Shown: positions 29,508-57,694, counted from the stretch's first letter. The stretch: 64,000 bases of DNA from Planctomycetota bacterium (GCA_038521625.1 JBCBKP010000001.1:75247-139246), one strand, 5' to 3'. Notes: generated by a model from the letters alone, not told the origin. A program made the numbers and translations.

Positions 29508-30974
<1,467 letters not shown>

Positions 30975-31178
30975 CTGGCGCGTTCCTCGGGTCTCGGAGT
31001 CTGGGCGGAGATCGTAGATGGCTCCCGGGAACGCGGGGCGGGGCAAAGAGTTCGCCGGTTTCCCGAACTACGATCTCGGCGGGCGGGTCTCGCCCATGCG
31101 ACCGGGGAACGGGCTGCGACAGCGCCCGCGGCGGGACCCATCCGGGGTCGCAGTCGTCGCCGGTCGCGGGGGAACCAC

Positions 31179-33298: not shown

Positions 33299-33317
33299 GC
33301 CGCTCAACCCGTTCTCG

Positions 33318-36943: not shown

Positions 36944-38374
36944 TCAGGTGTTCGCGCCGGCGTGCTTCCGCGCGTCGGTGCGGGCGATGATGTCGCTGAC
37001 GCCGGTCTGGTTGAAGCCCTTGAACCCGTCGTTGCGCTCGAGGTTCTCGAGGTGGCTGCCCAGGGCGCCGTCCTTGCGGAAGCTGTCCGCCTGCTCGCGG
37101 GTGATCCAGCCCTTGTCGACGCAGAGCCCGAGCCGCTGCTCGACGGGGATCCACAGCTCGCCCTCTGTGAACGCCTGGCGGAGGTAGGGGAAGGTCGTGA
37201 ACGGGGCCATGGTCTTGATGCCCGACTCACGCTCGAGCTGGTTGACCAGCGAGGCGTGGTCGAACTGGCACTCGAGGTGGTGCATGCCCGCCTGGAGCAT
37301 GCTCTCGCCGTGCAGGGCGGTCCACAGGCCGACGGTGCCGACGCTCTCGGCGTCGGAGACCTCGAAGCCCTCGTGGGCGAAGTCGCCGTGGATCTCCTCG
37401 GCGGACATGTCGACGTCGGCGAAGACCACGATCTTGGTGACCGGCTGCTCGAGGACCTGGGCGCCCCAGTTCGCCTCGGCGCCGGCGTAGAAGCGCTCGC
37501 GGCAGTGCAGGCCGAGCTTCTCGAGGATCTCGATGACACGCGGGAAGTTCTGGCGGCTGCAGCGGTAGGTGTGGTGGTCGTGGTTGGCCCAGCCGAGGCC
37601 GAGCTTCTGCTGGCGGGCGTACTGGACCTGCGCGGCGCGGTTGCGGCGCTGCCAGTACTCGCGCTCGGTGCGGAAGAAGATGTCGCAGGCCCAGTCGCGG
37701 CCCAGCTCCTCGACGGCGGCGTCGACCATGTTGCTCAGGTCGTCGAAGCCGCGGGTGTCGGCCTCGGCGCCGACGCCGAAGTCGCGCGGGCGGCTGCGGA
37801 GCCGCTCGGCGTGGTGCGCCGCGGCGATCCGGTCCTCGGGCAGGTCCTCGGTGAGGCCGAAGCCGTCGTAGCCGCGCCGGGCCATGACCCACAGCGCCGC
37901 GCGGTCGCCCATCATCGCCGGGGCCCAGCGGGCGCGGCTGAGCGGCTCGCCCTGGGCGTGCTCGATGCCGGGGATCTGCTGCGCGGCGAAGAAGTCGCTG
38001 ACGCGCTCGACCTTGACGCCGACCGACATGCGGTCGCTCTCGGTGAGCAGGACGTCGCAGAACAGTCCTTTGCGCTGCTCGAAGGCGTAGCCGATGTCCT
38101 CGTCGGCGAACTCGGTGGTCTTGGGCGTGAAGCCGGCGGCCTCGAGCTGCCCGCGGATCTCGTCGTTGTTGGGCGTGAGGATGACGCCGACCCAGTCCTT
38201 GAACCGCGTGCCGGTCTCGTCACGCATGCGGTCGGCGAGCCGCTGCGCGTCGGGGCAGCGGGCGAGGAACGTCGTCAGGAGCGAATCGATGAGCTTCTGC
38301 GCCTCGGGCTGCGGCTCCCACTGCCAGTTGCCCACGGTCGGATCGGCGGCGGGCTGGGACGGGGCGGTTGTCAT
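36944..38374 (-). CDS. DUF1338/YdcJ-like (HglS-family 2-oxoadipate dioxygenase/decarboxylase?) protein, tentative
   Basis: 476 aa. His-rich segments GWANHDHHTYRCSRQNFPRV and ALHGESMLQAGMHHLECQFD; length and motif order resemble my memory of E. coli YdcJ. Recalled from memory, so hedged. Confidence 0.35.
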   Translation of the reverse strand: MTTAPSQPAADPTVGNWQWEPQPEAQKLIDSLLTTFLARCPDAQRLADRMRDETGTRFKDWVGVILTPNNDEIRGQLEAAGFTPKTTEFADEDIGYAFEQRKGLFCDVLLTESDRMSVGVKVERVSDFFAAQQIPGIEHAQGEPLSRARWAPAMMGDRAALWVMARRGYDGFGLTEDLPEDRIAAAHHAERLRSRPRDFGVGAEADTRGFDDLSNMVDAAVEELGRDWACDIFFRTEREYWQRRNRAAQVQYARQQKLGLGWANHDHHTYRCSRQNFPRVIEILEKLGLHCRERFYAGAEANWGAQVLEQPVTKIVVFADVDMSAEEIHGDFAHEGFEVSDAESVGTVGLWTALHGESMLQAGMHHLECQFDHASLVNQLERESGIKTMAPFTTFPYLRQAFTEGELWIPVEQRLGLCVDKGWITREQADSFRKDGALGSHLENLERNDGFKGFNQTGVSDIIARTDARKHAGANT

Positions 38375-38599
38375 CGGGCTCTCCTTCGGGCGCGGCTCCG
38401 GCCGAGATGGGGATCGCGGCCTCCGCAGGCATCATTCGCAGCCCGATCGACCCACCTCAAGCGCCGGCGACCAACTCTCGGCCCGCCCGGCTTCAGGCTG
38501 CACCGGGGCGGGCGATCCGGACGATGCATACCACTGCCGGGCGGCCGTCGCGGCCGTTCGACTGTCAAGCGGCCTCGCGGCCAGCGGGAGGGCCCGGAG

Positions 38600-39919
38600 A
38601 TGGATCGGTTCGTGATCGAGGGCGGGCGCCGGCTCGAGGGGCGGCTGACGGTCAACGGCTCCAAGAACGCGGCGCTGCCGCTGATGGCCGCGCCGCTGCT
38701 GACCGACCGGGCGGTGACGCTGCGGGGCGTGCCGGGGCTGGCGGACATCGCGAACATGCGTCGGCTCCTCGCCGAGCTGGGGGTGGAGATCGGCGCCGCC
38801 GCCGAGCGGCCGACCGACCCGCCCGGCGCGGGCGTGACGCTGCGGTCGGCCGACGAGACCCGGTCCCACGCGCGGTACGACATCGTCCGGACCATGCGGG
38901 CGAGCATCTGCGTTCTCGGACCGCTGCTGGCGCGGCGCGGCTCGGCGAAGGTCTCGATGCCCGGCGGCTGCGCGATCGGGCAGCGCCCGGTCGACCTGCA
39001 CCTGCGCGGGCTGCGGGCGCTCGGGGCGACGATCGAGCTCGACGGGGGCGACATCGTCGCCGAGGCGCCCGGCGGGAAGCTGCGGGGCGACACGATCTTC
39101 ATGGGCGGCCCGTTCGGCAGCACGGTGCTCGGGACGGCCAACGTGCTCAGCGCCGCGACGCTGGCCGAGGGCACCACGGTGATCGAGGCGGCCGCCTGCG
39201 AGCCCGAGATCGTCGACCTGGCCAAGCTGCTGACGGCGATGGGCGCGCGGATCGAGGGCGCCGGCTCGCCCCGGATCACGGTCCACGGCGTCGACGAGCT
39301 CGGCGGCGCCGAGCACGCGGTCATGCCCGACCGGATCGAGGCGGCGACCTACATGTGCGCCGCGGCGATCACCGGCGGCGACGTGCTGCTCGAGCGGTGC
39401 CCGCTCGACGCGCTGCTCGCCGTGGTCGATCGGCTGCACGCGATCGGCGTGAAGGTCGAGCGGGCGCGCCCGGACCAGGACGCGATCGCCTGCGACGTGC
39501 GTGTGACCGCCGGGCACGAGCTCAGGCCCGTCGAAGTGACGACACAGCCGCACCCCGGCTTTCCGACCGACGCGCAGGCGCAGCTGATGGCGCTGCTGTG
39601 TCTGGCGGACGGCAACAGCGTGGTGACCGAGAAGATCTTCCCCGAGCGGTTCATGCACGTCGCCGAGCTGAGCCGCATGGGCGCCAGCCTGTTCCGCCAG
39701 GGCGCGACCGTGGTCGTCTCGGGCGTGCGGGGATTGACGGGGGCGCCGGTGATGGCGAGCGACCTGCGGGCCTCGGCCGGGCTGGTGCTGGCGGGTCTGG
39801 CGGCTCGCGGCACGACGATCGTCAACCGCGTGTACCACCTCGACCGCGGCTACGAGCAGATGGAAGAACGCCTCGCCAAGCTGGGCGCCGCGATCGAGCG
39901 GACGGGCGAGAGCGACTGA
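38600..39919 (+). CDS. murA: UDP-N-acetylglucosamine 1-carboxyvinyltransferase
   Basis: ATG at 38600 is preceded by GGGAGG. Product begins MDRFVIEGGRRLEGRLTVNGSKNAALPLMAA. Active-site PGGCAIGQRPVDLH is present and the C-terminus ...VYHLDRGYEQMEERL. The listed ORF 36962..39919 is over-extended through antisense DNA. Confidence 0.93.
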   Translation: MDRFVIEGGRRLEGRLTVNGSKNAALPLMAAPLLTDRAVTLRGVPGLADIANMRRLLAELGVEIGAAAERPTDPPGAGVTLRSADETRSHARYDIVRTMRASICVLGPLLARRGSAKVSMPGGCAIGQRPVDLHLRGLRALGATIELDGGDIVAEAPGGKLRGDTIFMGGPFGSTVLGTANVLSAATLAEGTTVIEAAACEPEIVDLAKLLTAMGARIEGAGSPRITVHGVDELGGAEHAVMPDRIEAATYMCAAAITGGDVLLERCPLDALLAVVDRLHAIGVKVERARPDQDAIACDVRVTAGHELRPVEVTTQPHPGFPTDAQAQLMALLCLADGNSVVTEKIFPERFMHVAELSRMGASLFRQGATVVVSGVRGLTGAPVMASDLRASAGLVLAGLAARGTTIVNRVYHLDRGYEQMEERLAKLGAAIERTGESD

Positions 39920-44853: not shown

Positions 44854-44927
<74 letters not shown>

Positions 44928-45041: not shown

Positions 45042-46382
45042 TCAGTCGTGGGCGGTCTCGCGAAGCAGCCTGCCGGGCAGGAAGAGCCCGAGCGCCGAGG
45101 CGGCGGAGAGCACGACCGCCGCGATCAGGAAGGCGTGCTCGAGGTTGGCGTCGTTATCGGCGTGGATCGCCTCGGCGACCAGCGCGCCCACGATCGCGAA
45201 CATCCAGGCGCCGCCGAGCATCATGCCGCTGGCCAGCCCGGTCCGGTGGGGCAGGAGCCGCTGCGCGATCGAGAGGCTGACCGGGATCAGCGCGCCGAAG
45301 CCGATGCCGCCGAGAACGGCGATGGTGAACGCGGCGGGCAGCGTCGCCCAAGCCGCGGAGGATTCGAGACGGTCGGCGTAGGGGAAGCTCGCGACGACGA
45401 GCGTGCCGACCATCGGGATCACAATGAACGACAGCTTCTCGAGCCGGCGCCCGAGGCCGCTGACGAGCAAGGCGCCCAGGCCGATGCCGCCGATCCCCAT
45501 GCCGAGCTGCATCGCGGCCTGCAGCGGCCCGCTGGTCGCCGAGGCCTTGAGCCCGAGCTGCTCGTCGAGCGTGGTCACGCCGGCGCGGGCGGCGGTCAAC
45601 CGCTCGGACCACTCAATAAAGAGGTAGATCAGGGCGTTGTTGACGGCGAACCGGATGACGTTGGCGAAGTAGAGCAGCCAGACCGCGCCCCAGCGTCGCC
45701 TCTTCTCGGTCGCCGAGAGCGCGTGGTGGTCGTCGTGCGCGGTCGCGTGGCGGTGCGGGGTGTTGTGGATCGCGCGCCCGAGCACCATCGCCGTGAGCAG
45801 GCCGAGGGGCAGCAGGCCGATCAGCGCGTGGAGGCCGAAGGTGATCTGCGCAGCCTCGTCGCCGCCCGAAAGGGCGCCGGCGCCGCGGACGAACTGGGGC
45901 GTCAGCGCGTTGCCGACCATCCCGCCGAGCATGCCGGACATGAAGAACACGTTGAGCATGACCGAGCGCCGGCGCTTGCCGGCGAGCGTGCCGACGGTCG
46001 CCGCGGCGGGAGGGTGGAACGCCCCGACGCCCATCGAGCCGAGCAGGAAGAGCGTGAGCAAGACCGGGAAGTTGGGGGCGAAGCCGACGAGCGCGACGCA
46101 GACCGTCGCGACGACGACGCCCGCGGTGCCGAGCCAGCGGCTGTCGTGCCGGTCGGAAAGCCAGGCGACGACCGGCTGGACCGACCCGGAGGCGACGATG
46201 CCGAGGCCGATCAGCAGGGACTTCTCCTGGGTTGTGATGCCGAGGCGGACAGAGAGCAGCGGGAGCAGCGAGATCGTGATGAACTGGAGGAAGTCGACGC
46301 CGGTGTGGGCCCCGATCGGGATCCAGAGGCGTGGCGTTCGGGCCTCGATCGGGTGGTCCTTGGTCGCGGGGATCGTCGTCAA
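45042..46382 (-). CDS. MFS transporter
   Basis: 12 predicted TM helices and a Gly-rich MFS signature. 446 aa. The listed start is TTG; the exact start is uncertain. Confidence 0.8.
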   Translation of the reverse strand: MTTIPATKDHPIEARTPRLWIPIGAHTGVDFLQFITISLLPLLSVRLGITTQEKSLLIGLGIVASGSVQPVVAWLSDRHDSRWLGTAGVVVATVCVALVGFAPNFPVLLTLFLLGSMGVGAFHPPAAATVGTLAGKRRRSVMLNVFFMSGMLGGMVGNALTPQFVRGAGALSGGDEAAQITFGLHALIGLLPLGLLTAMVLGRAIHNTPHRHATAHDDHHALSATEKRRRWGAVWLLYFANVIRFAVNNALIYLFIEWSERLTAARAGVTTLDEQLGLKASATSGPLQAAMQLGMGIGGIGLGALLVSGLGRRLEKLSFIVIPMVGTLVVASFPYADRLESSAAWATLPAAFTIAVLGGIGFGALIPVSLSIAQRLLPHRTGLASGMMLGGAWMFAIVGALVAEAIHADNDANLEHAFLIAAVVLSAASALGLFLPGRLLRETAHD

Positions 46383-46481
46383 GCCGAGTTGTAGCAGGGA
46401 GTCCCCCGCGGGTCGCAGGGCGGATCGGTCCTTCGCGGAATTCGATTGCGGGCGGCCCGACCGCGGGGCATGATCTGGGTC

Positions 46482-48710
46482 ATGCCCGAGAAATCCCGAG
46501 CCGCATCCGTTCTCTCGCGACTCGCCGCGGGCGCTGGCTTCTTGATCGCGACCGGCCCGCTGCTGGCCCAGGCCCCGGCCCTGGAGCGTCGCTACGACGG
46601 CTCAAAGCTGGTCGAGGTGGTGCCGGATGGGGCCAGCCAGGTCCGCTGGCTGTCGACGCTCGAGGCCGCCGAGCCCGGGCTGCTGTTCGCCGGGGAGCGG
46701 ATCGGGCCGGGCGAGCCGGCGTGGTTCGTCGCGTCGCCGGCGGCGCTCGTGATGCTGGCCGAGCTCGGGCTCGAGGCGGACGTGCTCGCCGAGGACGTGC
46801 AGGAGCTGATCGACCAAGAGCGGGCGCCGCGTCCCGGCGCGCTGCTCCGGGCCTCGACCGACCCGTACTTCGACGACTACCGCAGGCCGGCGGAGATCGA
46901 CGCGTTCCTCGATCAGATCGCCGGCGCGCCGATCGCCGTGCGTTCGGTCATCGGGGCGACGCACGAGAGCCGCGAGATCGATCTGATCACGCTGACCGGC
47001 GCGGGGGATCCGGCCTCGAAGCCGAGCCTTCTGCTGACGTTCGGCTGCCACGCGCGCGAGTGGATCAGCGTCGCGTCCGGCAACTTCCTGCTCGACCGGC
47101 TGGTCACGGCCTACGGCAGCGACCCGCGGGTCACCGCGGCGCTCGACCGCGTGAACATCCTGCTCGTGCCGGTGGCGAACCCCGACGGGTACTCGTACAC
47201 GCACACGAACGATCGGCTGTGGCGCAAGAACCGGCGTCCGGTCATGAACGAGAACGGCGCCGATATCGGCGTCGATTGGAACCGAAACTTCGACGCCGGC
47301 TGGGGCGAGGGGATCGAGTCGGGGCTGGTCTTCCCCCAGAGCACGGCCTATGCCGGGCCGTCGGCGTTCAGCGAGCTGGAGACGCAGGCGATCCGGGACC
47401 TGGTGTTGGCGACGCCAGACCTGATCGGGCACATCGACGTCCACAGCTTCAAGCAGGTGATCTTCACGCCGACCGCGGGCCTGCCGGGCGGGATCGATCC
47501 GCTGGAGAACGCGCTGCACCGCGACATCGCGACCGACGCGATCGAGGGGATCAAGGCGGTCTCGGACACGATCCCGCAGTTCGAGAACTACACGGTGGAC
47601 GACTCGTATCTCTCCGGTGGGATGGGCTACGACTGGACGTACGCCGTCACGCAGGGCGGCTCGGATGCGCGCACGTACCTGCTCGAGCTGCCGCCGACCT
47701 CGAGCAACCCGGGGTTCCTGCTGCCGCCGGAATTCATCCGCCCGGTGGGCGAGCAGATGGTCGAGTCGGTGCTGCGGACGATCGAGACGATCGTCGACGG
47801 CGCCGGTGCTCGCGGCACATTGCCCGACGCGTCGGGTCAGATGTTCAAGGCCAGCGTGACGGCGGCCGCCGGCCCGGTCTCCGGCGTCCGCCTGGTGACC
47901 GACGTCGGCGGGGTGCGCAGCTCGAGCGCGATGGACGGCGTCGACGTGATGGCGGACACCGCAAGCGGCGGCTACGACGCGCCGCTCCCCAGCGCCGCGT
48001 GCGGCGTGCCAGTCGGTGTCTCGGTCGAGGCGACGGTGAACGGCGGCACGGTGGAGTTGCCGCAGGGCGTCGTCGAGGGGCGAGGGCGGGCGCGATGGTT
48101 CCGCGACGAGATCGAGAGCGACCAGGGATGGTCGTTCGGGCTGCCCGGCGAGGTCGTCGAGGCCTGGGGCCTCGGCCAGAGCTGGATCGCGACCTTCAAC
48201 GAGACCGGCGTCAGCTCGCTGAAGACCTACCCGATCTCGTTCGATGTCGGCGAGTTCGCGGGCGGCTCGGCCGAGCTGCGCTACACGATCCGATTCCTCG
48301 AGGGCACCGACGCGGACAAGCTCGAGGTGGGCTACCTGGATATCGACCGCGGCGACTTCTTCCCGACGACCATCGATCGCGTGCGCCCCTCGGCGACGAC
48401 GCTGACACGGACGATCCCGCTGCCGACGGACCTGCGCCGCGCGCAGATCGTCTTCCGGGCCCGGAACGTGGGCGGCGGCTTCCGCGTGGCGCTCGATTCG
48501 TTCGAGGTCGCGCTGCGGACGTGCCCGCCGGCGGCGGGCGCGGCGGACCGGGCGGTGCCGCTGGGCGTGATCTCGCAGCTGGACGTCGCGCTGTTCCTCG
48601 AGCGTTTCTTCGCGGACGACCCCGGGGCCGACCTCGCGGCGCCGTTCGGCGTGATCAGCCAGACCGACGTGGAGGCATTCGTGGACGCGTTCTTCGGTGC
48701 GGGCCAGTGA
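46482..48710 (+). CDS. secreted M14 zinc carboxypeptidase with C-terminal GC-type dockerin-like domain (paralog 1)
   Basis: ATG at 46482 gives MPEKSRAASVLSRLAAGAGFLIATGPLLAQA. The zinc site TFGCHAREWIS (HxxE) and NPDGY are present. C-terminus: CPPAAGAADRAVPLGVISQLDVALFLERFFADDPGADLAAPFGVISQTDVEAFVDAFFGAGQ. Confidence 0.85.
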   Translation: MPEKSRAASVLSRLAAGAGFLIATGPLLAQAPALERRYDGSKLVEVVPDGASQVRWLSTLEAAEPGLLFAGERIGPGEPAWFVASPAALVMLAELGLEADVLAEDVQELIDQERAPRPGALLRASTDPYFDDYRRPAEIDAFLDQIAGAPIAVRSVIGATHESREIDLITLTGAGDPASKPSLLLTFGCHAREWISVASGNFLLDRLVTAYGSDPRVTAALDRVNILLVPVANPDGYSYTHTNDRLWRKNRRPVMNENGADIGVDWNRNFDAGWGEGIESGLVFPQSTAYAGPSAFSELETQAIRDLVLATPDLIGHIDVHSFKQVIFTPTAGLPGGIDPLENALHRDIATDAIEGIKAVSDTIPQFENYTVDDSYLSGGMGYDWTYAVTQGGSDARTYLLELPPTSSNPGFLLPPEFIRPVGEQMVESVLRTIETIVDGAGARGTLPDASGQMFKASVTAAAGPVSGVRLVTDVGGVRSSSAMDGVDVMADTASGGYDAPLPSAACGVPVGVSVEATVNGGTVELPQGVVEGRGRARWFRDEIESDQGWSFGLPGEVVEAWGLGQSWIATFNETGVSSLKTYPISFDVGEFAGGSAELRYTIRFLEGTDADKLEVGYLDIDRGDFFPTTIDRVRPSATTLTRTIPLPTDLRRAQIVFRARNVGGGFRVALDSFEVALRTCPPAAGAADRAVPLGVISQLDVALFLERFFADDPGADLAAPFGVISQTDVEAFVDAFFGAGQ

Positions 48711-48793: not shown

Positions 48794-51043
48794 ATGCCGA
48801 GAGCGCTTCTTTCCATACTTGCGGGTCTGTTTGTCGCCTCGTCGGCCGCCGCGCAGGTCGCGGGCCCTTCGCCGGCGGCGCAGCGTTACGACGGCTACCG
48901 GCTCGTCGAGGTCACCGCGGAGGATGCGCGCCAGGTGCTCGCGCTGGCGAGCTTCGACGCGACGGGCGGCCCGCTCGTGTTCGCTGGCGAGCAGGTCGCC
49001 GCGGGCATCCCCCTGCAGTTCGCGGCCGACGCGGCGGGCCTGGAGATCCTCGCGTCACTGGGGCTGGAGCCCGAGGTGGTGTTCGAGGATCTCGGCGCGG
49101 CGATCCAGCTCGAGCGCGACCGTTCGGTGGACGCGCTGCGTGCGAGCTCGGACACGTTCTTCGACGCGTACCGGACGTTCGACGAGATCCGCGCGCGGCT
49201 GGCTGAGATCGACGCGTCGTCGGGGCTGGTCTCGATCGAGCAGATCGGAGAGAGCTTCGAGGGGCGGCCGATCGAGCTCGTGCGGGTGTCGGGCGCGGGG
49301 GACGCGCTGACGAAGCCGACGATCTTCATGACGTTCGGGTGCCACGCGCGGGAGTGGATCAGCGCGTCTTCGGCGCCGTTCCTGGTCGACGCGTTGGCGT
49401 CGCGGTACGGGCAGGACGCTCGTGTGACGCGGCTGCTGGACCTGGCGACGGTGGCGATCGTGCCGCAGGCGAACCCGGACGGCTACGAGTTCACCTGGAC
49501 AGACGATCGATTCTGGCGGAAGACGCGTCGCCCGCTGGAGGACGGCGTGAACGTCGGCGTCGACTGGAACCGGAACTTCAGTGAGCGTTGGCTCACCGGG
49601 CTCATCAGCGGGCCGAGCGAGGGGTTGTACGCGGGGCCGGAGCCATTCAGCGAGCCGGAGACCAGAGCGGTGCGCGACGCGGGCCTCGCGATCGCCAACC
49701 CGCTCGCGTTCATCGACTGGCACAGCTTCACGCAGCAGATCATCCCGCCGAGGTATGGCGCGGGCTCGACGTTGGCCGACGACTCGGAGCCGCTCACGCC
49801 TATCGAGGCCGCGGTGCATCGAAGCGTCTCGAACTATCTGATCCAGGGGGCGAGAACTCTGCCGGACGGCGCCGCGGCCGAGTACGCGCATTGGGACCTG
49901 TACAGCTTCGGCGGCGGTGCGCTAGATTGGGCCCACGCCGAGCTCGGGGTTATCTCTCTGCTCGTCGAGCTCCCACCCACGGGGAGCCCGGGATTCCTGA
50001 TCGGGCCGGAGTCGATCCGCCCGGTCGGGGAGCAGGTCCTCGAGATGACGCTCTCGAAGCTGGAGATCCTGCTCGGCGATGGGATCGAGGCGGTGCTGAG
50101 CCCGAGATCGTTCGCCGGCGAGACGGTCGAGGTGACGGTGCACTCCACCGGGCCCGAGGTCGCTGGAGTCTCGCTCATCAGCGGCTCCGGCGTCGATGCG
50201 CGTACGACGCCGATGGGATCGTTTCCCGATGCACTCCCGTTCGAGTCCTTCATCGAGAATCCGCTGGGAACGGGGCCGTTCCTGGCGGAAACCGAGTTTG
50301 TGCCGTGCGGCGAGGCTCTGGCTCTTGCGGTCGACATCGAGTTGGACGACGGTTCGGTCGTGCGGCGGCCGCTCGATCCGATCAGCGGCGTGGAGTTCGG
50401 AACACTCCAGAACGGGGGCCAGGACTCGCGGGATGGGATCGAAGCCTCGCCGCCCTGGCGCTTCGGGGTGGCGCCGATCAGCGGCGAGGTCGGGTGGAGC
50501 GCCAACGGAGTTCGATCCGCGGTGTTCCGTTCGCGTGTATTCGACGTGGACGCCTGGGATCCTCTGATTCAGCAGGAGATCTGGCTGGCGATCGACTCCT
50601 TCGTGCTATGGATTCAGGAGTTCTCGGGTGTTCGGGTCTGGCTTGAGTCTCCCGACCGTGGCCGGTCGGTCGAGGTGCCGATCTCACGCCTGGTCTCCGA
50701 GACTGAGTTGAACCAGATCGTCGGCGAGCGACACAGCATTCGCGTGCCGCTCGACGATGCGCTGCGAGAACTCACGCCGAGCTTCCGCGTTCGCGCCGCG
50801 TTCTTCGGACGTGACCCGATGCTCTTTGAGCTCCGCGACATCCGCATCGAGGCGCGCGGCTGCCCGGTCCCCCTCGGCCCGGCCGATCTCGCCGTGCCCT
50901 TCGGTGTGATGACGGCCAACGACATCCAGGCGTTCCTCGACGCGTTCCAGAGCGGCTCCCTGGCGGCCGACCTGGCCGAGCCGTACGGCGTGGTCTCGCA
51001 GCTGGACATCGCCGAGTTCGTCGGCCAGTTCTTCGGCTTCTGA
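48794..51043 (+). CDS. secreted M14 zinc carboxypeptidase with C-terminal GC-type dockerin-like domain (paralog 2)
   Basis: MPRALLSILAGLFVASSAAAQ is a signal peptide. MTFGCHAREWIS and NPDGYEF are present. The C-terminus CPVPLGPADLAVPFGVMTANDIQAFLDAFQSGSLAADLAEPYGVVSQLDIAEFVGQFFGF is the same anchor domain. Confidence 0.85.
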   Translation: MPRALLSILAGLFVASSAAAQVAGPSPAAQRYDGYRLVEVTAEDARQVLALASFDATGGPLVFAGEQVAAGIPLQFAADAAGLEILASLGLEPEVVFEDLGAAIQLERDRSVDALRASSDTFFDAYRTFDEIRARLAEIDASSGLVSIEQIGESFEGRPIELVRVSGAGDALTKPTIFMTFGCHAREWISASSAPFLVDALASRYGQDARVTRLLDLATVAIVPQANPDGYEFTWTDDRFWRKTRRPLEDGVNVGVDWNRNFSERWLTGLISGPSEGLYAGPEPFSEPETRAVRDAGLAIANPLAFIDWHSFTQQIIPPRYGAGSTLADDSEPLTPIEAAVHRSVSNYLIQGARTLPDGAAAEYAHWDLYSFGGGALDWAHAELGVISLLVELPPTGSPGFLIGPESIRPVGEQVLEMTLSKLEILLGDGIEAVLSPRSFAGETVEVTVHSTGPEVAGVSLISGSGVDARTTPMGSFPDALPFESFIENPLGTGPFLAETEFVPCGEALALAVDIELDDGSVVRRPLDPISGVEFGTLQNGGQDSRDGIEASPPWRFGVAPISGEVGWSANGVRSAVFRSRVFDVDAWDPLIQQEIWLAIDSFVLWIQEFSGVRVWLESPDRGRSVEVPISRLVSETELNQIVGERHSIRVPLDDALRELTPSFRVRAAFFGRDPMLFELRDIRIEARGCPVPLGPADLAVPFGVMTANDIQAFLDAFQSGSLAADLAEPYGVVSQLDIAEFVGQFFGF

Positions 51044-51146: not shown

Positions 51147-51797
51147 ATGACCGACCCACGCCCGCTCAGCGCGAGGCTCAAGGAAGACAACTGGGATCTG
51201 CACGAGCAGGCCGAGCGCGACACGCTCCCGCAGCACCTCGTCCGCGGCACGCTCCCGCGCGAGGCCTACGTCGAGATGCTCGGGCAGATGTACCTGGCCA
51301 ACCGGGTGCTCGACGCGCGGATCACCGAGGCCCGGGGCGACGTCCCGATCCTCAACGAGCTGGTCGGCGACCGCCAGCTCCAGGGCCCGTACCTGCTCGA
51401 GGACCTCGCGTTCTTCGGGGTCGAGGCCGGCTCGCTCGAGCCCCGGCCCGGGACCGCGGCGCTGATCGCCGAGATCGAGCGCGCGGCCAGCGAGGAGCCG
51501 ATCGCCCTGTTCGGCCTGCACTACGTCCGCGAGGGCGCGAACAACGGCAACCGCTTCGTCGCGATGAAGGTCCGCGCGGCGTACGGGCTCGAGGGCACCG
51601 ACGGCACGCGATACCTCGACCCCTACGGCGGCGACCAGCGGCGCCTGTGGGACGAGTTCAAGACGCGGCTCGACGAGCAGGCCCTCTCCGAGGACGAGAA
51701 ATCGTCGATCGTCGCCTCGGCGCGGCGCATGTTCGAGCTGATCATGGCGACCCACCGCGATCACGACCTGCCCGAGCCCGCCGGCACCGCCGGCTGA
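51147..51797 (+). CDS. heme oxygenase (HO/HmuO family)
   Basis: ATG is preceded by AGGAG. LSARLKEDNWDLHEQAERDT carries the proximal His in the position of HO-1 His25 (EAHDRAE). YVREGANNG corresponds to the GDLSGGQ region. 216 aa. Confidence 0.6.
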   Translation: MTDPRPLSARLKEDNWDLHEQAERDTLPQHLVRGTLPREAYVEMLGQMYLANRVLDARITEARGDVPILNELVGDRQLQGPYLLEDLAFFGVEAGSLEPRPGTAALIAEIERAASEEPIALFGLHYVREGANNGNRFVAMKVRAAYGLEGTDGTRYLDPYGGDQRRLWDEFKTRLDEQALSEDEKSSIVASARRMFELIMATHRDHDLPEPAGTAG

Positions 51798-51809
51798 GGG
51801 AGCGACACG

Positions 51810-52490
51810 ATGACAACCGCCGTCCCCGAGCCGAGCACCGAGGTGCGGCCGCTCAGCCGCGTGCTCGGCGAGGCCTGCGTCGATGGCTTCGCCGCGCTCG
51901 ACGCCTCGCCCGTCGTCCAGGGCCTCCTCCAGGGCACGCTGCCGCGCGAGAGCTACGCCTCCTGGGTCGCCGCGATGCACGCGTTCGACCGCGAGCTCGA
52001 CGGGCTGCTGATCGGGCGACGCGACGAGGCCCTGATCCTCGCGACCACGGCCGGGGATAGCCGGCTGCACGGCCCGCTCGGGGAGCCGGACCTCCACGAC
52101 CTGGGCATCGACCGCGGCGCCGTGGCTCTGCCCGAGGCGGCGGCGCGGTTCTTCGAGGGCCTGCGCGCGGGCGAGGCGTACGAGCTGATGTCGGCGCACT
52201 TCGCCCGCTCGGCGCTGCGCAACGCGCACCGCTACCTCGCGGCGCACGCCCGCCGGACCTTCGGCTTCGAGGACCGCGAGGGCACGCGCCTGCTCGACCC
52301 GTACGGGCTCGGCCAGCGGGCGCTCTGGGAGCGGTTCCGGCGCGACGTGGACCGGCACCGCCTGCACGACGACGACCTCGAGAAGCTCAAGACCCGCGCC
52401 TGCGACGCGCTCGCCGCGCTGCTGCCGCTGCACGAGCCCGAGGGCGTCGCCTCGCCCGCCGAGACCCGCCCCGTGCTCGCGACGCTGTAA
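51810..52490 (+). CDS. heme-oxygenase-like paralog lacking the proximal His
   Basis: 13 bp after the previous gene, with a GAGGGAG RBS. It shares GTLPRE(S/A)Y and TRLLDPYG..QR.LWE.F with the upstream HO. The His position reads GEACVDGF. Confidence 0.5.
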   Translation: MTTAVPEPSTEVRPLSRVLGEACVDGFAALDASPVVQGLLQGTLPRESYASWVAAMHAFDRELDGLLIGRRDEALILATTAGDSRLHGPLGEPDLHDLGIDRGAVALPEAAARFFEGLRAGEAYELMSAHFARSALRNAHRYLAAHARRTFGFEDREGTRLLDPYGLGQRALWERFRRDVDRHRLHDDDLEKLKTRACDALAALLPLHEPEGVASPAETRPVLATL

Positions 52491-52511
52491 CGAGCGGGTA
52501 CGCTCCCGGCG

Positions 52512-53855
52512 ATGCCGCCCTTCCAGTATCTCGACGGCGAGCTCATGGCCGAGCGGGTCCGAGTCGCCGACGTCGCCGACCGCTTCGGCACGCCGCTGAT
52601 CGTGCACTCGGCCCGATCGCTGGCTCGGCACCACGAGCGGATCCAGTCGGCGCTCACGCCGATCGGGGCCTCGGTCCATTTCGCGGTCGACGCCTGCCCC
52701 GACCTTGGCGTGCTCCGCGCCCTCGCGGAGCGGGGGGCCGGCTTCTACGCCGGCGGGGGGCTGCACCTCGAGCGGGCCTGGCTGGCCGGCGCCTCGATGC
52801 AGCGTGTCGTCCTCGCCGGTGTCGGCAAGTCCGACGAGGTGCTGCGGGCCGCCGTGGACGGCGTCTACAGCCCGATGTTCGGCCTGGGGACGCTCGTCGG
52901 CGACAAGCCCGCGTCTTACCGCGGCCCGGTCGGGCTGCTCAGCCTCGACAACCCGCTCGAGCTCGAGCGCCTCCGCCGCGCAGCTTCCGGGCTCCGCGTG
53001 AACTGCCGCGCGATGATCCGCGTGGCGATCGACCCCGACGGCGAGGGCGAGACCAAGTTCGGCGTCTCGCCCGACGACGTCGAGCTGTTCCTCTCGAGAC
53101 ACGACCCCGCCGGGCCCGTGAAGATCGTCGGCCTGCACGCGCACACGCCGCCCGGCGGTCGCGACGCCGCCCGCATCGGGCGCACGGCGTCGCTGCTGTG
53201 CGAGCTGGGGCTCGGGCTGCGGGCGCGCCACGAGCACATCGACACGATCGACGTCGGCGGCGGCTGGGCCGCGGTCGGCCTCTCGCGGCGCGTCGAGCTC
53301 CCGGAGACCTACGCCGACGCGGTCTCGGGCGCGACGCACCGGTGGGTGGCCGAGGGCGGCTCGGTGATCGTCGAGCCCGGTCGCGCGATCTCCGCCTCGG
53401 CCGGGATCCTCGTCACGCGCGTGCTCGACGTGAAGCGCCTGCACGGGCGAGACATCGCCTACTGCGACGCCGGGCTCGAGGAGCGCCTCCGCCCGAGCGA
53501 CGCCGGCGGATTCCGCCTCGCGTGGCCGGTCTCGGTCGACTCGGGGCAGGAGCCGCCGAGCGACGAGGACTCGAGGATCGACAGCCGGAACATGCACTGG
53601 GCCGATCTCGCCGGGCCGACCGGTCGTGAGCGCGACGCGCTCGCCCGCGGTCGCCTGCTCCCGAAGATCGAGTCGGGCGACCTCATCGCGGTCTTCGGCG
53701 CGGGCGCCTACGCGAGCCGCTGCGTGCTCACGCAGTCCGGGCGCGACGGCTGCGCCCGCATCATCGTCGACGAATACTCGGCCCGGCTCACGCGCGCCAA
53801 GGGCGACGGCCCCGCCTCGCTGCGCCCCGAGCTCGACACCGGGAGCCCCGCTTGA
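52512..53855 (+). CDS. type-III PLP-fold (Orn/DAP/Arg decarboxylase family) protein with PLP-Lys replaced by Asp
   Basis: FGTPLIVHSARSLARHHERIQ, IDVGGGW, EPGRAIS and FGAGAYAS match the LysA-family motif order. At the Schiff-base position LysA has FAQKACSN; here it reads FAVDACPD. 447 aa. Confidence 0.6.
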   Translation: MPPFQYLDGELMAERVRVADVADRFGTPLIVHSARSLARHHERIQSALTPIGASVHFAVDACPDLGVLRALAERGAGFYAGGGLHLERAWLAGASMQRVVLAGVGKSDEVLRAAVDGVYSPMFGLGTLVGDKPASYRGPVGLLSLDNPLELERLRRAASGLRVNCRAMIRVAIDPDGEGETKFGVSPDDVELFLSRHDPAGPVKIVGLHAHTPPGGRDAARIGRTASLLCELGLGLRARHEHIDTIDVGGGWAAVGLSRRVELPETYADAVSGATHRWVAEGGSVIVEPGRAISASAGILVTRVLDVKRLHGRDIAYCDAGLEERLRPSDAGGFRLAWPVSVDSGQEPPSDEDSRIDSRNMHWADLAGPTGRERDALARGRLLPKIESGDLIAVFGAGAYASRCVLTQSGRDGCARIIVDEYSARLTRAKGDGPASLRPELDTGSPA

Positions 53856-56800
53856 GTCGTCGCCGCTGGCTCGTCGCCGGCGCGGCGGTCGCGGCGTACC
53901 TCCTGGCCGTCGTCGTGTCGAACCTCGTCACCGACCCCGCATCGGGCACCCTCTCGCGCTCGTCGGCCCGCAGCTCGTTCGTGGAGACGCCGGTCTTCGA
54001 TCGCGACGGCGTGGTCGCGGGCGGCGCGACGACACGGATCCATCTCGAGCACGCGCGTGCCGAGGCCGAGAACCCGCGCCCCACCGCGGTCTTGATCCAC
54101 GGCTCGCCCGGCGGGCTGGGCAGCTTCGGACCGCTCGCGCCGCTGCTGCGCGATGCCGGCTACGACACGCTCGCGATCGACCTCGCCGGCTTCGGGCGAT
54201 CCGACGCCGACGTCCCCGACTATGGCTCGCGGGCCCAGGCCCGCTACGTCCTGGCCGTCATGGACGAGCTCGGCGTCGATCGGGCCCACGCGGCCGGCTT
54301 CTCGCTCGGCGGCGCCGTCGCGATGCACATGGCGGACATGCGTCCGCAGGCCGTCGCGACCGTCACGCTGCTCGCGTCGGTCGGCCTGCAGGAGACCGAG
54401 GGCTCGGGCTCGCACCTGCTCGAGCAGGCGCGCTACCGCATCGCGACGATCGGACCAAGTCTCCTCCCGCACTTCGGCGCGATCGATGTCAGCGACCGCT
54501 CGCTCGCGTGGGCGCTCTACTTCTGCCACACCGACCAGCGGCTGCTCGGGCCGATCATGCGCGCGCTGGAGACCCCGACGCTGATCCTCCACGGGCGCAG
54601 CGACCCGCTCGTGACGCACCACGCGGCCGAACGCCACCACGCGGTCATGCCCTCGGCCCGATTGGTCATGACGGACCTAGCGGGCTCGGACCTCGCGCCG
54701 ATCGGGCACTTCCTGCCGTTCCTCCAGCCCGAGCGGTCGGCGCCGATCCTGACCGGCTTCTTCGCGCGCCACGACGAGCCCGGCGTCCGCCCGCTGACCC
54801 ATGTCAGCGATCTCGTCCCCGCGCGCGACCGCGGGCTGCTGACACCGGCGCTGCGCGGGCTGTGGTCGCTGCCATGGTGGGCGGTGCTGCTCGGCTTCGC
54901 GCTGCTCGCGCGCTGGTCTCCGACGACCGCGATCGTCCTCGGCGGTCTGGGCAAGGCGACGCTCAGCCTCGACTTCGGCCTGACCGCGCTCGCGGTGACG
55001 CTCGGGCGCCTGAGCGCCCGCGCTCCGGACGGGCTCAAACGCCCCGCGGCGCGCGTGCTGCAGCGTCTGCTCTGGCCGACCCCGCTCCTGCTGATCTCGA
55101 CACTCGGCTGGGTCGCGATCGAGTTCGCGTTCGAGGATGCGCGGGTCGGCCCGCTCACGCTCGTCGCCGCGACGGTTTTCGCGGTCCTGCTCGTGCTCGG
55201 CGTGCGCCGGCTGACGCGCCTCTGGTCCCGCCGCCCGATCGCGTTCGGCGCGGTCCTGGTCGCGCTCGTCGCCAGCCACATCGTCGCGCTCGCGGTGCCC
55301 GACCGCGCCTGGCTGATGCCGGCCGACGCCGTGCGTGCGACGACCGAGATCCCGCTCGGACCGACCGCCGATCTGACGCGGGCTCGCAGCGCCCGTCTGT
55401 CATACCTCGCCTGGCCCACCGCCGGGCCGAGCGAGCGCCCGCCGGTCGTCCTCCTGCACGGCTCGCCCGGCCTCGCCACCGACTGGTCGAACCTCGGCCC
55501 GCTGCTCGAAGCGCAGGGCCGGGACGTCTACGCGCTCGATCTGCCCGGCTTCGGGCTCTCGGAAGCCTGGCTGCACGACTACTCGGCACGGACCTACGCG
55601 GAGATCGTGCTCGCCTGGATGGACGCCCGCGGCATCCGCCGCGCCCATCTCGTCGGCTGGTCGAACAGCGGCAACCTCGTGATCCATGCGGCCGACCTGG
55701 CGCCCGAGCGCCTCGCCTCGATCACCATGCTCGCCGCGACCGGGCCGCAGGAGACCGAGGGCTCCGGCGTGCGCGCGTTCGAGCACGCCAAGTACCTCGT
55801 CGGCTACCTGGGCGTCGTGGCCCTCCCCGAGGTCGTCCCGCCGCTGCAGAACGCCTTCCCGCGCGCGTGGCGCCACGCCTTCATCCGCAACTTCATCGAC
55901 ACCGACCAGCGGCTCGCCGGCCCGATCATGCGACGCATCGAGACCCCGACGCTGGTGCTCCAGGGGCGGGCCGACTTCCTGCTCGCCGACTGGGCCGCCG
56001 AACAGCACCACGAGGTCCTGCCGGCCAGCCGCCTCGTGGTCACCGCCGACGGGCACATGATGCCGTTCTTGAACCCCGGCAACGTCGCCGCCGCGCTCGC
56101 GCCGTTCCTCGAGCGCCACGACCCGCCGGGCGTCGCCGCCCTGACCCACACGTCCGACCTGGCGCCCAGGCCCGACCGCGGCGTGCTCGACCAACTGCTG
56201 CGGGCCGTGCGCGATGCGCCGTGGTGGATCCCGATCCCGGTGCTCTTCGTGCTCGCCTGGCTGCGCCCCGAGACGACGACCGCGATCGCCGCGGTCTTCA
56301 CGAGCGCCATGTCGCTCGACTTCGGCGTCGCCTTCTGCGGGCTGCTCCCCGCCAGGCTGCTCCGAGCGCGCCGCCCGTGGGAGCCCGCCGGCCGCACGAG
56401 GCTCGAGGATCTCGCGTGGACGCCGATCGCGCTGCTGATCGCGCAGCCGCTTTCGGCCGTGGGACCGGTCTACGACGCGGCCGGGCTCCTCGGAGTCGTC
56501 GCCCAGATCGCGGCGGTGACGCCGATCGCGCTGCTGATCGCACAGCCGCTTTCGGCCGTGGGACCGGTCTACGACGCGGCCGGGCTGCTCGGCGTCGTCG
56601 CCCAGGTCGCGGCGGTGACGCTCGCGCTTCATCTCGCCCGGCGCGCGGTCACACGCGAGGGCCGCCAGCGGATCCGCGCCGGCTTCGTCCGGACCGTCTC
56701 GCACGAGTGGTGGCCGACGTGGACGTTCTACCTCCCGATCACGCCCGTGATCATCGCGCGCGCGTTGAAGCACCGCTCGCTGCTGCTGCCGACCGCGATC

Positions 56801-57694
56801 AACCCCGGCATGCCCGCCGGCGGCGGCGTGGTGGGGGAGAGCAAGTCGGAGATCATCCGCGCGATGGACCACCCCGCCGTGCTCGCGTGTGCGCTCTTCG
56901 AGCCCGGCGACGCGCCCGGTGCGCTCGCGGCGCTGCGAGACCGGCCCGAGCTCGCCGGTCTCCCGATCATCTGCAAGCCCGACGCCGGCGAGCGCGGGCG
57001 CGGCGTGCGGCTCGTCCGGTCCGAGGCCGATGTCGGGCGGCACGCGCGCCACGCCGACGCCCCGTTCGTACTCCAGCGGTTCCACGCCGGCCCCGAGGAG
57101 TGCGGCATCATGTGGGCGAGGTCGCTCGCTCCGGCGGATGCGCTCACCGGTCGGATCACCGGCGTCGTGCGCAAGACATTCCCGGTCGTCGTCGGCGACG
57201 GGGAGCGCACGCTGCGCCGGCTCATCATGGAGCACCCGCGGTACCGGCTGCAGCGTGATCTCTTCTTCGGCCGCTTCGCCGGCCGCCTCGCCGAGATCGT
57301 GCCCGAGGGCGAGCGCGTCCCGCTCGGGCACGCGGGCAACCACAGCCAGGGCTGCCTGTTCACCGACGGCGCCGACCTGATCACGCCCGAGCTGGAGGCC
57401 GCGATCGACGAGATCGCCCGCGGCTTCGAGGGCGGGCTCGACCTCGGCCGCTTCGACGTCCGCTACGAGACCGACGAGAAGCTCCGTCGCGGCGAGGGCC
57501 TCGCGATCGTCGAGCTCAACGGCCTGACCAGCGAGCCGACGCAGATGTACGACCCGGCCTGGTCGGCCGCGCGCATGTGGCGCGAGCTCGCGGACCACTG
57601 GCGCACCGCGTACGAGCTCGGCGCGTGGCGGCGCGAGCGGGGCGGCCGCCCGATGAAGCTCGGTGCGCTCTCGCGGTTGCTCTTCGGGAGATGA
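53852..57694 (+). CDS. 1280-aa membrane fusion protein: alpha/beta-hydrolase x2 + multi-TM segments + C-terminal ATP-grasp ligase domain
   Basis: The TTG start overlaps the upstream TGA as cTTGA. Hydrolase 1 has VLIHGSPGG...GFSLGG; hydrolase 2 has VLLHGSPGL...GWSNSG. Hydrophobic blocks follow each hydrolase. The C-terminus has IICKPDAGERGRGVRLV, VLQRF and AIVELNGLTSEP, which is the ATP-grasp K/G-loop plus E-x-N. Confidence 0.65.
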   Translation: MSRRRWLVAGAAVAAYLLAVVVSNLVTDPASGTLSRSSARSSFVETPVFDRDGVVAGGATTRIHLEHARAEAENPRPTAVLIHGSPGGLGSFGPLAPLLRDAGYDTLAIDLAGFGRSDADVPDYGSRAQARYVLAVMDELGVDRAHAAGFSLGGAVAMHMADMRPQAVATVTLLASVGLQETEGSGSHLLEQARYRIATIGPSLLPHFGAIDVSDRSLAWALYFCHTDQRLLGPIMRALETPTLILHGRSDPLVTHHAAERHHAVMPSARLVMTDLAGSDLAPIGHFLPFLQPERSAPILTGFFARHDEPGVRPLTHVSDLVPARDRGLLTPALRGLWSLPWWAVLLGFALLARWSPTTAIVLGGLGKATLSLDFGLTALAVTLGRLSARAPDGLKRPAARVLQRLLWPTPLLLISTLGWVAIEFAFEDARVGPLTLVAATVFAVLLVLGVRRLTRLWSRRPIAFGAVLVALVASHIVALAVPDRAWLMPADAVRATTEIPLGPTADLTRARSARLSYLAWPTAGPSERPPVVLLHGSPGLATDWSNLGPLLEAQGRDVYALDLPGFGLSEAWLHDYSARTYAEIVLAWMDARGIRRAHLVGWSNSGNLVIHAADLAPERLASITMLAATGPQETEGSGVRAFEHAKYLVGYLGVVALPEVVPPLQNAFPRAWRHAFIRNFIDTDQRLAGPIMRRIETPTLVLQGRADFLLADWAAEQHHEVLPASRLVVTADGHMMPFLNPGNVAAALAPFLERHDPPGVAALTHTSDLAPRPDRGVLDQLLRAVRDAPWWIPIPVLFVLAWLRPETTTAIAAVFTSAMSLDFGVAFCGLLPARLLRARRPWEPAGRTRLEDLAWTPIALLIAQPLSAVGPVYDAAGLLGVVAQIAAVTPIALLIAQPLSAVGPVYDAAGLLGVVAQVAAVTLALHLARRAVTREGRQRIRAGFVRTVSHEWWPTWTFYLPITPVIIARALKHRSLLLPTAINPGMPAGGGVVGESKSEIIRAMDHPAVLACALFEPGDAPGALAALRDRPELAGLPIICKPDAGERGRGVRLVRSEADVGRHARHADAPFVLQRFHAGPEECGIMWARSLAPADALTGRITGVVRKTFPVVVGDGERTLRRLIMEHPRYRLQRDLFFGRFAGRLAEIVPEGERVPLGHAGNHSQGCLFTDGADLITPELEAAIDEIARGFEGGLDLGRFDVRYETDEKLRRGEGLAIVELNGLTSEPTQMYDPAWSAARMWRELADHWRTAYELGAWRRERGGRPMKLGALSRLLFGR
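56419..56616 (+). repeat. 99-bp in-frame tandem duplication (2 copies, ~5 mismatches) inside the 53852..57694 CDS
   Basis: It duplicates the 33-aa segment TPIALLIAQPLSAVGPVYDAAGLLGVVAQ(I/V)AAV, a hydrophobic helix. Confidence 0.85.

Follow-up and report, generated by a model that had tools for sequence, protein, structure and literature searches.

A compact cluster of four plus-strand genes occupies positions 51147-57694 of a 64,000-nucleotide stretch of Planctomycetota DNA (GCA_038521625.1 JBCBKP010000001.1:75247-139246), referred to here in its entirety as the window. The source is an uncultured, marine-type Planctomycetota metagenome-assembled genome (MAG), and the cluster is assigned to a sub-clade of the Phycisphaerae. 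Gene 1 (51147-51797, 216 aa) encodes a heme oxygenase (HO). Gene 2 (51810-52490, 226 aa) encodes a protein with the HO fold that lacks the proximal His and is termed HO' below. Gene 3 (52512-53855, 447 aa) encodes a protein, LysA', related to the diaminopimelate (DAP) decarboxylase LysA. Gene 4 (53852-57694, 1280 aa) encodes a tandem pair of modules, each with a leading transmembrane (TM) helix, a hydrolase domain and a TM block, followed by an ATP-grasp ligase module. An earlier note on this DNA proposed that these genes are transcribed together and constitute one undescribed system. We weigh that proposal against a reading in which two distinct modules, one built around heme oxygenase and one around the ligase, have come to lie side by side.

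The four open reading frames (ORFs), their coordinates and their spacing were exactly as the earlier note had given them. Genes 1 and 2 are separated by 12 bp (GGGAGCGACACG), a spacer that resembles a ribosome-binding site, and genes 2 and 3 by 21 bp, while the TGA stop of gene 3 and the TTG start of gene 4 (the cTTGA overlap) have 4 bp in common (gcTTGAg). This spacing is compatible with co-transcription, and the earlier argument for a single transcript extends that far. For gene 4, the upstream TTG start is favored because it keeps an N-terminal TM helix that aligns with the orthologs. GC content at third codon positions (GC3) is 0.94-0.97 for genes 1-4, in a window of ∼72% GC, which is a strong coding signature. 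Proteins of the cluster were also found in independent Logan assemblies, which argues that the unusual residues described below are not sequencing errors.

Gene 1 matches PF01126 over residues 6-202 of 216 (E=2.7e-22; 80.1 bits, cutoff 23) and aligns over its full length with HOs of solved structure (PDB 5kzl, 1wov, 1iw0), His19 falling on the proximal ligand His. The earlier description of this protein as a canonical HO holds for the family match and the His; it does not extend to the distal helix (HYVREGANNGNRF), which reads GANNGN rather than GDLSGG. Among ∼145 family members, the distal helix has the consensus EG(S/A)xNG, and the proximal His is kept in 136. A GANNGN-type distal helix presumably fits bacterial HOs of the HemO/PigA/BphO type. 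Orthologs of gene 1, at 40-73% identity, were found on related contigs L012, L034-L051 and L053. Family membership and the retained His suggest that gene 1 encodes a working HO.

Gene 2 had no match in Pfam (none to PF01126 at E<0.1), in NCBIfam or among PDB sequences. Its identity to gene 1 amounts to 33% (E=5e-32), Phe takes up the column of the proximal His, and the distal helix (RSALRNAHRY) is devoid of the Gly-Gly pair. Hence neither hallmark of a catalytic HO, the proximal His or the Gly-rich distal helix, is present. The fold is nevertheless predicted with confidence: the AlphaFold2 (AF2) model has a predicted local distance difference test score (pLDDT) of 91.3, and its top 50 Foldseek matches are all genuine HOs (TM-score 0.75-0.84; root-mean-square deviation ∼2.5 Å), consistent with an all-helical HO fold. 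In an exhaustive HMMER scan of 1.84 billion representatives, no gene 2 ortholog exceeded ∼39% identity, the next match lying at 36% (E=3e-25), and a word-index homolog search returned gene 2 itself alone.

The earlier note recognized gene 2 as a paralog that has lost the proximal His. This proved correct, and the loss is not a one-off. Five of the best matches to gene 2 (P0197-P0200, P0212) are likewise without the His, with L, M, I or V in its place; the same five have no distal Gly-Gly and, like gene 2, end in a C-terminal tail of the form PV(x)(T/S)(L/F). Gene 2 belongs with them in a rare His-less group, here called group B, which comprises six clusters at 50% identity drawn from Logan, ENA and NCBI MAG data. 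Alignment scans with group B returned nothing from species-representative genomes or JGI metagenomes. Residues invariant across the group include R13, D64, D83, R133, Y142, W173, R175, F176, R178 and D179, several of them within the motif WxRFxRD. As judged by alignments and predicted structure, HO' is a coherent His-less subfamily with the HO fold, and the term that suits gene 2 best is bacterial 'pseudo-HO'. Given this subfamily and the recurrent position of HO' after HO (see below), the idea that gene 2 is a private, decaying duplicate was dropped. A non-exhaustive search of the HO-related full-text literature turned up no description of a bacterial pseudo-HO subfamily. One group B protein (P0212, L054 6769-7449) has a His two residues before the usual ligand column (RDHVVDY).

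Gene 3 matches PF02784 and PF00278 and has the type-III (alanine-racemase-like) fold of pyridoxal phosphate (PLP) enzymes, with an N-terminal barrel and a C-terminal sheet domain. It aligns over its full length with PDB 3n2b (E=1e-33) and scores 160.9 bits against the TIGR01048 lysA model, under the cutoff of 297.9. The earlier note reported Asp in place of the catalytic Lys, and we find the same: the AVKAN motif reads AVDAC, the Schiff-base Lys being replaced by Asp (codon GAC, 52689-52691). An identical protein is encoded in three independent assemblies. In addition, the GPxCE(S/T)xD motif has become GPTGRERD, and the MNxLxRPALY substrate loop is lost, reading LEERLRPSD. Contacts to the PLP phosphate and pyridine are kept (GGG, EPGR, HxH and GAY, at columns G249-251, E288-G290, H211 and Y400), and the protein carries the clade-specific insertion DGVYSPMF...YRGPVG. 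The LysA' clade as a whole spans five to six lineages, which have in common this insertion (DGxYSPLF...YRGPVG), the loss of CE(S/T) and the retained PLP-contact motifs. The Schiff-base Lys is present in the closest relatives of gene 3 (P0123 from L008, P0124, and the proteins of L018 and L053). In L016 it was lost independently, to Ala, and this protein is degraded further (EPGW in place of EPGR, and deletions). On these alignments, the Lys loss in gene 3 is specific to its lineage, and the residue has been lost twice independently within the LysA' clade.

For gene 4, the two alpha/beta hydrolases, TM segments and ATP-grasp domain named in the earlier note were all called correctly. The first alpha/beta-hydrolase domain (54059-54781, ∼aa 70-310) matches PF00561 (166 bits) and PF12146. 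It is followed by TM block 1 together with the TM helix that opens the second module (54869-55309, aa 340-486), the second alpha/beta-hydrolase domain (55409-56131, ∼aa 520-760; PF12697, 90 bits), TM block 2 (56219-56641, aa 790-930) and the ATP-grasp ligase module (56642-57694, aa 931-1280). The TM blocks were delimited by hydropathy, which marks hydrophobic segments at aa 344-363, 429-457 and 461-486. Domain 1 contains an HG motif, a GFSLG nucleophile, GRSD and GH, and domain 2 contains HG, a GWSNSG nucleophile, GRAD and GH; HG and the Ser-Asp-His triad are intact in each copy as well as in 11 orthologs. Identity between the two hydrolase modules is only 43%, which points to an old internal duplication with maintenance of both copies. 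Over residues 10-444, identity to the single-module ortholog of L008 is 42%. Single-module orthologs, of ∼820-840 aa, come from Phycisphaerae MAGs (L016-L031), and there are ∼13 full-length hydrolase-TM-ATP-grasp orthologs in MAGs of this class.

TM block 2 of gene 4 also contains a much smaller repeat, an in-frame 99-bp (33-codon) tandem duplication of a hydrophobic segment at 56419-56616 (TRF: period 99, 2.1 copies). The duplicated segment is PIALLIAQPLSAVGPVYDAAGLLGVVAQ(I/V)AAVT. Because its copies differ at 4 nt (three synonymous changes and one Ile/Val), we regard the duplication as real rather than as an assembly artefact; the independent Logan contig L001 ends within it. The possibility that a TM block of gene 4 is a cryptic DedA domain was considered and rejected, as BLAST similarity to DedA-containing relatives is confined to the ligase module.

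Of the profile matches that the earlier note expected, those to PF01126, PF02784/PF00278 and PF12697 were obtained. The ATP-grasp models did not match, and assignment of this domain required a profile and structure prediction. Pfam gave no ATP-grasp model for the C-terminus of gene 4, the best match being TTL at E=0.03, below the cutoff; NCBIfam likewise gave none above threshold, with only partial matches to CphA models at 27-32 bits against cutoffs of 850-877. A single-sequence search of the PDB with the ligase module reached E ∼0.16 at best. With a profile of 25 sequences, the G domain of cyanophycin synthetase (CphA1) was matched at 1e-7. The AF2 model of the module (pLDDT 90.1) placed CphA1, GshF, CphA2 and Ddl at the top of the Foldseek matches, with a probability of 1.00 for CphA1, GshF and Ddl, at 12-21% identity and a TM-score of ∼0.5. 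Profile and model together point to an ATP-grasp fold.

Within the 25 sequences, K112 (in KPD), E291 and N293 (in ELN) are invariant; by analogy, K112 would bind ATP and E291 and N293 would be Mg ligands. The module begins with a pair of basic/hydrophobic helices (HEWWPxWxFYxP) and contains an invariant NPG...GG.VGESK motif. More than 230 homologs were found, nearly all of them planctomycetal. Most are DedA/VTT fusions of ∼530 aa and some are stand-alone proteins; no Pfam model exists for this ligase family. Gene 4 and the DedA fusions have in common only the ligase module and the helix that precedes it (43-52% identity by BLAST). The DedA domains of the fusions resemble UptA/COG0586; DedA subfamilies have been described (PMC10127716). 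No description of DedA-ATP-grasp fusions was found in the literature.

Upstream of gene 1 in the window lie an MFS gene (45042-46382) and two M14 zinc carboxypeptidase paralogs on the plus strand, at 46446-48710 (754 aa; PF00246, E=3.3e-55) and 48794-51043 (749 aa; PF00246, E=2.7e-60). The paralogs are 36% identical to each other, and 103 bp separate the second from gene 1. The arrangement MFS(-)-M14(-M14)-HO turned out to be the most conserved neighborhood of the gene 1 HO clade. M14 lies upstream of HO in L012, L035-L038, L049, L050 and L052, with the tandem M14-M14-HO recurring in L035, and it precedes HO' in L054; no fewer than nine independent loci have M14 next to HO. In L012, the gene 1 ortholog (66% identity) sits in an MFS-M14-HO-PALP array without LysA' or the ligase, and in all 19 of the further metagenomic loci with gene 1 orthologs (40-67% identity) the flanks are free of HO', LysA', hydrolase and ATP-grasp genes, M14 being nearby in 8 of them. 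HO' follows directly after a gene-1-type HO (HYVREGANNGNRF) in L010/L011, L013/L014, L015 and L053, and five contig families have this order. The next gene after HO' is LysA' in L053 and a tRNA_bind gene in L010 and L013. This last gene (L010 985-1383; L013 1225-1536) is small and CsaA/Trbp111-like, and it is set off from HO' by a gap or overlap of 1-4 bp.

A separate observation concerns the M14 peptidases. On the minus strand of the window, at 146-1912 and 2028-3836, are genes for two DUF7453 proteins, with a third ORF at ∼3920-4090. All three have in common with both M14 peptidases a C-terminal segment of ∼55 aa (44-51% identity by tblastn), which may be a common sorting or anchoring domain. 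A DUF7453 gene is also found near the M14-HO' pair of L054.

The ligase gene keeps other company. The gene immediately upstream of it encodes RlmN in L017, L019, L024 and L025, and likewise for the stand-alone form in L004 and L006; the RlmN-ligase junction in these relatives is often a 4-bp overlap, and genes for a class-II aminoacyl-tRNA synthetase and DnaB lie near such loci. Elsewhere the neighbors include PrkA, NIF3, MurG, ComEC and a GT2 glycosyltransferase. The upstream radical-SAM gene was considered as a lysine aminomutase-like pathway enzyme, and this was ruled out by its identity as RlmN. A LysA-like gene stands directly upstream of the ligase in five lineages (the window, L008/L023, L016, L018 and L028); in L028 it encodes an intact LysA (428.8 bits against the cutoff of 297.9). 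Of the 14 hydrolase-TM-ATP-grasp loci, ∼9 have no LysA-like gene and 12 have no HO. The window itself contains an RlmN gene at 32967-34442 (491 aa, with a long N-terminal extension), located behind a Band_7 gene as in the relatives and with no ligase beside it; the two together span 29322-34442, the Band_7/SPFH protein being 1166 aa long. As this RlmN gene lies 19 kb away and no second ligase copy accompanies it, the ligase gene has left its usual context.

Two further ligase loci deserve mention. In the cultured gemmatal planctomycete Frigoriglobus tundricola (CP053452.2; L007 7105-9593), the start of the DedA-ATP-grasp gene is overlapped by a gene of 299 codons, whose product has only a faint match to TANGO2 and represents a third kind of upstream ligase partner. 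In L026 (6326-7468), a Phycisphaerales MAG, the hydrolase-TM-ATP-grasp gene is flanked immediately upstream by a gene for a MurG-like glycosyltransferase (GT28 N and C domains) and on the downstream side by ComEC. This MurG neighbor is a lone pointer to a setting in the synthesis of peptidoglycan precursors.

How do these neighborhoods bear on the four-gene cluster? The order in the window is M14-M14-HO-HO'-LysA'-ligase-LeuRS. Adjacency of the four genes in relatives, which the earlier note had singled out for checking, is found in part: L053 has genes 1-2-3 (HO-HO'-LysA', after which the contig ends before any ligase gene) and L008 has genes 1-3-4 (HO-LysA'-ligase...LeuRS-TrkA_C-FolC, with the same downstream synteny as the window). 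It is not found in L012, in the 19 other HO loci or in ∼9-12 of the 14 ligase loci. The earlier note had held that independent scattering of the genes among relatives would speak against a single conserved system, and scattering is largely what is seen. The flanks of the cluster match L012 on the upstream side (MFS-M14-HO) and L008 on the downstream side (LeuRS-TrkA_C-FolC), the pattern that the meeting of two syntenic blocks would produce. The HO side and the ligase side lie next to each other only in the window and in L008. Between the window and L053, the identities are 73% for HO, 39% for HO' and 46% for LysA', and LysA' is 46-51% identical among the window, L008 and L053, whose lineages are well separated.

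We therefore favor a reading in which the locus comprises two distinct modules, M14-HO-HO' and LysA'-gene 4, which are neighbors, and probably co-transcribed, in one Phycisphaerae sub-clade and which play the roles proposed below; taken as a whole, we put this at about an even chance. Evidence that the genes form one new system is weak; the four-gene cluster is probably a lineage-restricted arrangement rather than a widespread new system, and outside this sub-clade its parts have had separate histories. It remains true, as stated earlier, that no described pathway matches the four-gene combination.

Several observations count against this reading of the locus. Related contigs are mostly short fragments of MAGs or metagenomes. 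The neighbors of the ligase gene are variable and mostly housekeeping genes (RlmN, DnaB, PrkA, MurG, ComEC), and adjacency to lysA could therefore be historical rather than functional. In L054-L056, HO' directly follows M14 with no HO beside it. The similarity between the DedA domains and UptA, which enters into the proposed role of the ligase, is weak (27-37 bits, far below cutoffs). Finally, the adjacencies in the window, L008 and L053 leave some room for functional coupling between HO and LysA'/ligase after all.

From the folds, motifs and neighborhood statistics, we infer the following substrates, membrane topology and partner roles. Gene 1 would open heme to biliverdin, iron and carbon monoxide. 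The gene 2 product would not ligate heme iron and is most likely an accessory or regulatory subunit that binds a tetrapyrrole or HO itself. Gene 4 would be a membrane-anchored carboxylate-amine ligase, whose ATP-grasp module must face the cytoplasm, where ATP is found. If cyanophycin synthetase, GshF and Ddl are a guide, the enzyme would activate a carboxylate as the acyl-phosphate and couple this to an amine. Most likely an amino acid serves as substrate and is added to an envelope molecule associated with the membrane or a lipid carrier; we suggest this because the ligase module is always membrane-tethered and because the domain most often fused to it has a weak resemblance to UptA, which transports undecaprenyl phosphate. 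The hydrolases might trim, transfer or reverse the modification made by the ligase, in the manner of synthase/hydrolase pairs for aminoacylated lipids (PMC6103681). Gene 3 appears to descend from the lysA gene that flanks the ligase in some relatives and to be a DAP decarboxylase no longer. Because the determinants of DAP decarboxylase and the catalytic Lys are lost, it is probably not a decarboxylase, and a non-catalytic role as a ligand-binding or regulatory subunit seems probable. A more ambitious version can be formulated, in which the ligase family adds an amino acid (DAP or Lys-like) without tRNA to a polyprenyl- or lipid-linked envelope precursor, the DedA or TM part handles the lipid, the hydrolases edit, the LysA' pseudoenzyme delivers or senses the amino acid, and, in this sub-clade, co-transcription with HO and pseudo-HO couples the whole to the supply of heme or iron. 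We consider this version decidedly unlikely.

Were the four genes one tetrapyrrole operon, HO would make a bilin, HO' would hold it, and LysA' would present an amino acid or amine, which the ATP-grasp module would add to a bilin propionate or related carboxylate at the membrane, with the hydrolases processing the product. The tight co-directional spacing and the start/stop overlap are in line with this, as is the ability of ATP-grasp enzymes to join carboxylates to amines, and the partial arrays HO-HO'-LysA' (L053) and HO-LysA'-ligase (L008) persist despite only ∼46% identity of LysA'. However, LysA' and the ligase are missing from L012 and from 19 of 19 other loci of the gene 1 clade, HO is missing from ∼12 of 14 ligase loci, in L010 and L013 the gene after HO' is tRNA_bind, and the ligase family occurs across the Planctomycetota in unrelated contexts. 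Gene 3, moreover, has no catalytic Lys here. We judge a single tetrapyrrole operon unlikely. The same absence of Lys counts against an iron-acquisition locus, in which HO would free heme iron and a DAP decarboxylase-like enzyme would cooperate with the ATP-grasp protein in building a carboxylate-type siderophore. There is a precedent, since vibrioferrin-type pathways combine an ATP-grasp enzyme (PvsA) with a DAP decarboxylase-like decarboxylase (PvsE); gene 3 weakly matches the rhizoferrin decarboxylase FslC (E=8e-4), HO is present and an MFS gene is at hand. Yet gene 3 groups by its insertion with LysA of the Phycisphaerae and not with siderophore decarboxylases, no IucA/IucC-type synthetase or TonB receptor was found in the cluster or among the scanned genes of the 64-kb window, the ligase family normally follows rlmN, and the MFS-M14-HO unit occurs without genes 3 and 4. 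An iron-acquisition locus is thus very improbable.

Genes 2 and 3 might alternatively be relics without function, one left by duplication of HO and the other a redundant lysA, both in the course of being lost, so that only genes 1 and 4 matter. Consistent with this, the catalytic His and Lys are gone, HO' and LysA' evolve much faster than HO between the window and L053, and LysA' of L016 has decayed further still. On the other side, both genes are intact full-length ORFs with GC3 of 0.95-0.97; HO' belongs to a subfamily with invariant residues, a conserved tail (six clusters at 50% identity) and a confidently predicted fold; and the PLP-contact motifs and the insertion persist in the LysA' clade across five to six lineages. 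We regard the relic explanation as quite improbable. Lastly, the earlier note raised the idea that the HO-fold proteins act as HO-like diiron oxidases (HDOs) in a natural-product pathway; their substrate here would be an amino acid. In the Bes pathway, an HDO does occur together with a PLP enzyme and an ATP-grasp protein, and the present locus has in common with it only the helical fold and the co-occurrence of a PLP-fold protein and an ATP-grasp domain. The defining feature of HDOs is a 3His/3carboxylate (or 3H/4C) set of metal ligands on core helices 1-3 (PMC13108848). No such set is present: in group B neither His nor Glu is invariant at any position, and the other HO-like group, A, conserves a single proximal His and HO motifs only. 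Gene 1 passes PF01126, and the top structural matches of the gene 2 model are, as described above, genuine HOs without exception. The absent ligand set rules out an HDO identity for genes 1 and 2, and we take the probability of this pathway to be close to negligible.

As judged from sequence and predicted structure, the components of the cluster are variants of known folds, and the interest lies in the ligase family, the LysA' clade and the HO/pseudo-HO pair. If the two-module reading is true, the locus would hold three uncharacterized groups of proteins. A planctomycete-wide, membrane-anchored ligase family related to cyanophycin synthetase, situated among cell-envelope and housekeeping genes, would bear on the poorly understood planctomycete envelope. 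A LysA-derived clade that repeatedly loses the catalytic Lys, with the PLP pocket kept, would be a candidate bacterial pseudoenzyme. And a bacterial His-less HO beside an active-type HO would offer a tractable counterpart to the eukaryotic pseudo-HOs.

Other features of the window were noted in passing. A promoter and terminator scan, made with a tool that is not tuned for planctomycetes, gave no promoter-like site and one terminator-like site, inside the convergent leuS. An Rfam scan of the window found two tRNA genes only (10360-10430 on the plus strand and 44854-44927 on the minus strand), with no riboswitch or small RNA near the cluster. The MurA protein encoded at 36962-39919 (TIGR01072, 497 bits over residues 547-980) has an unannotated N-terminal extension of ∼546 aa without a Pfam or NCBIfam match.

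Comparison with known systems brings out what is particular to each protein. Bacterial HOs of PF01126 (HmuO, Leptospira HO and cyanobacterial HO) resemble gene 1 in the full-length match, the proximal His and the distal-helix Gly. They differ in that gene 1 has no counterpart of the Asp of GDLSGG, and the conserved genomic partner of the gene 1 clade is an M14 carboxypeptidase rather than a phytochrome or an operon for heme uptake. The pseudo-HOs AtHO2 of Arabidopsis and PfHO of Plasmodium combine the HO fold with loss of the His ligand and of the distal Gly-Gly (PMC11634067), the same losses as in gene 2. Unlike these proteins, gene 2 is bacterial, is encoded right after an active-type HO, and has a hydrophobic residue at the His position as well as a conserved C-terminal tail. 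The likeness to eukaryotic pseudo-HOs is one of kind, with no evidence for shared descent. Gene 3 is like LysA (TIGR01048; PDB 3n2b, 2p3e) in its fold and retained PLP contacts, and its insertion is common to LysA of the Phycisphaerae. It departs from LysA in the absence of the Schiff-base Lys, CE(S/T) and substrate loop, in a score below the equivalog cutoff, in its membership of a fast-evolving clade and in its position upstream of the ligase gene.

For gene 4, an architectural parallel may be drawn with MprF and the hydrolases VirJ, AhyD and PesT, where an aminoacyl-phosphatidylglycerol synthase/flippase is paired with a partner hydrolase (PMC6103681). As would be the case in gene 4, a cytoplasmic amino-acid-adding enzyme is mounted on a membrane module and its product is controlled by a serine-type hydrolase. 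The MprF systems are not homologous to gene 4, being tRNA-dependent and devoid of ATP-grasp, and a lipid substrate for gene 4 is purely hypothetical. Its best profile and structure matches are CphA1 (7lg5, 7wae), CphA2, GshF and the D-Ala-D-Ala ligases, with which it has the predicted ATP-grasp fold in common. The GDG..T..LI insert region aligns between the CphA1 G domain and the gene 4 ligase; this is a partial G-domain match only, and gene 4 possesses neither the Mur-ligase-like M domain nor the N domain of CphA1. In place of the usual N-terminal alpha/beta subdomain, it has membrane-proximal helices and the NPG...GESK motif, and its family, unlike those enzymes, is tethered to the membrane through hydrolase/TM or DedA modules. 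Also close are the DedA(VTT)-ATP-grasp fusions, such as the uncharacterized 'VTT domain-containing protein' of Frigoriglobus tundricola, which have the same ligase module and preceding helix. Where these fusions carry DedA, the Phycisphaerae proteins carry a serine hydrolase and a TM block, and in the window this unit is duplicated.

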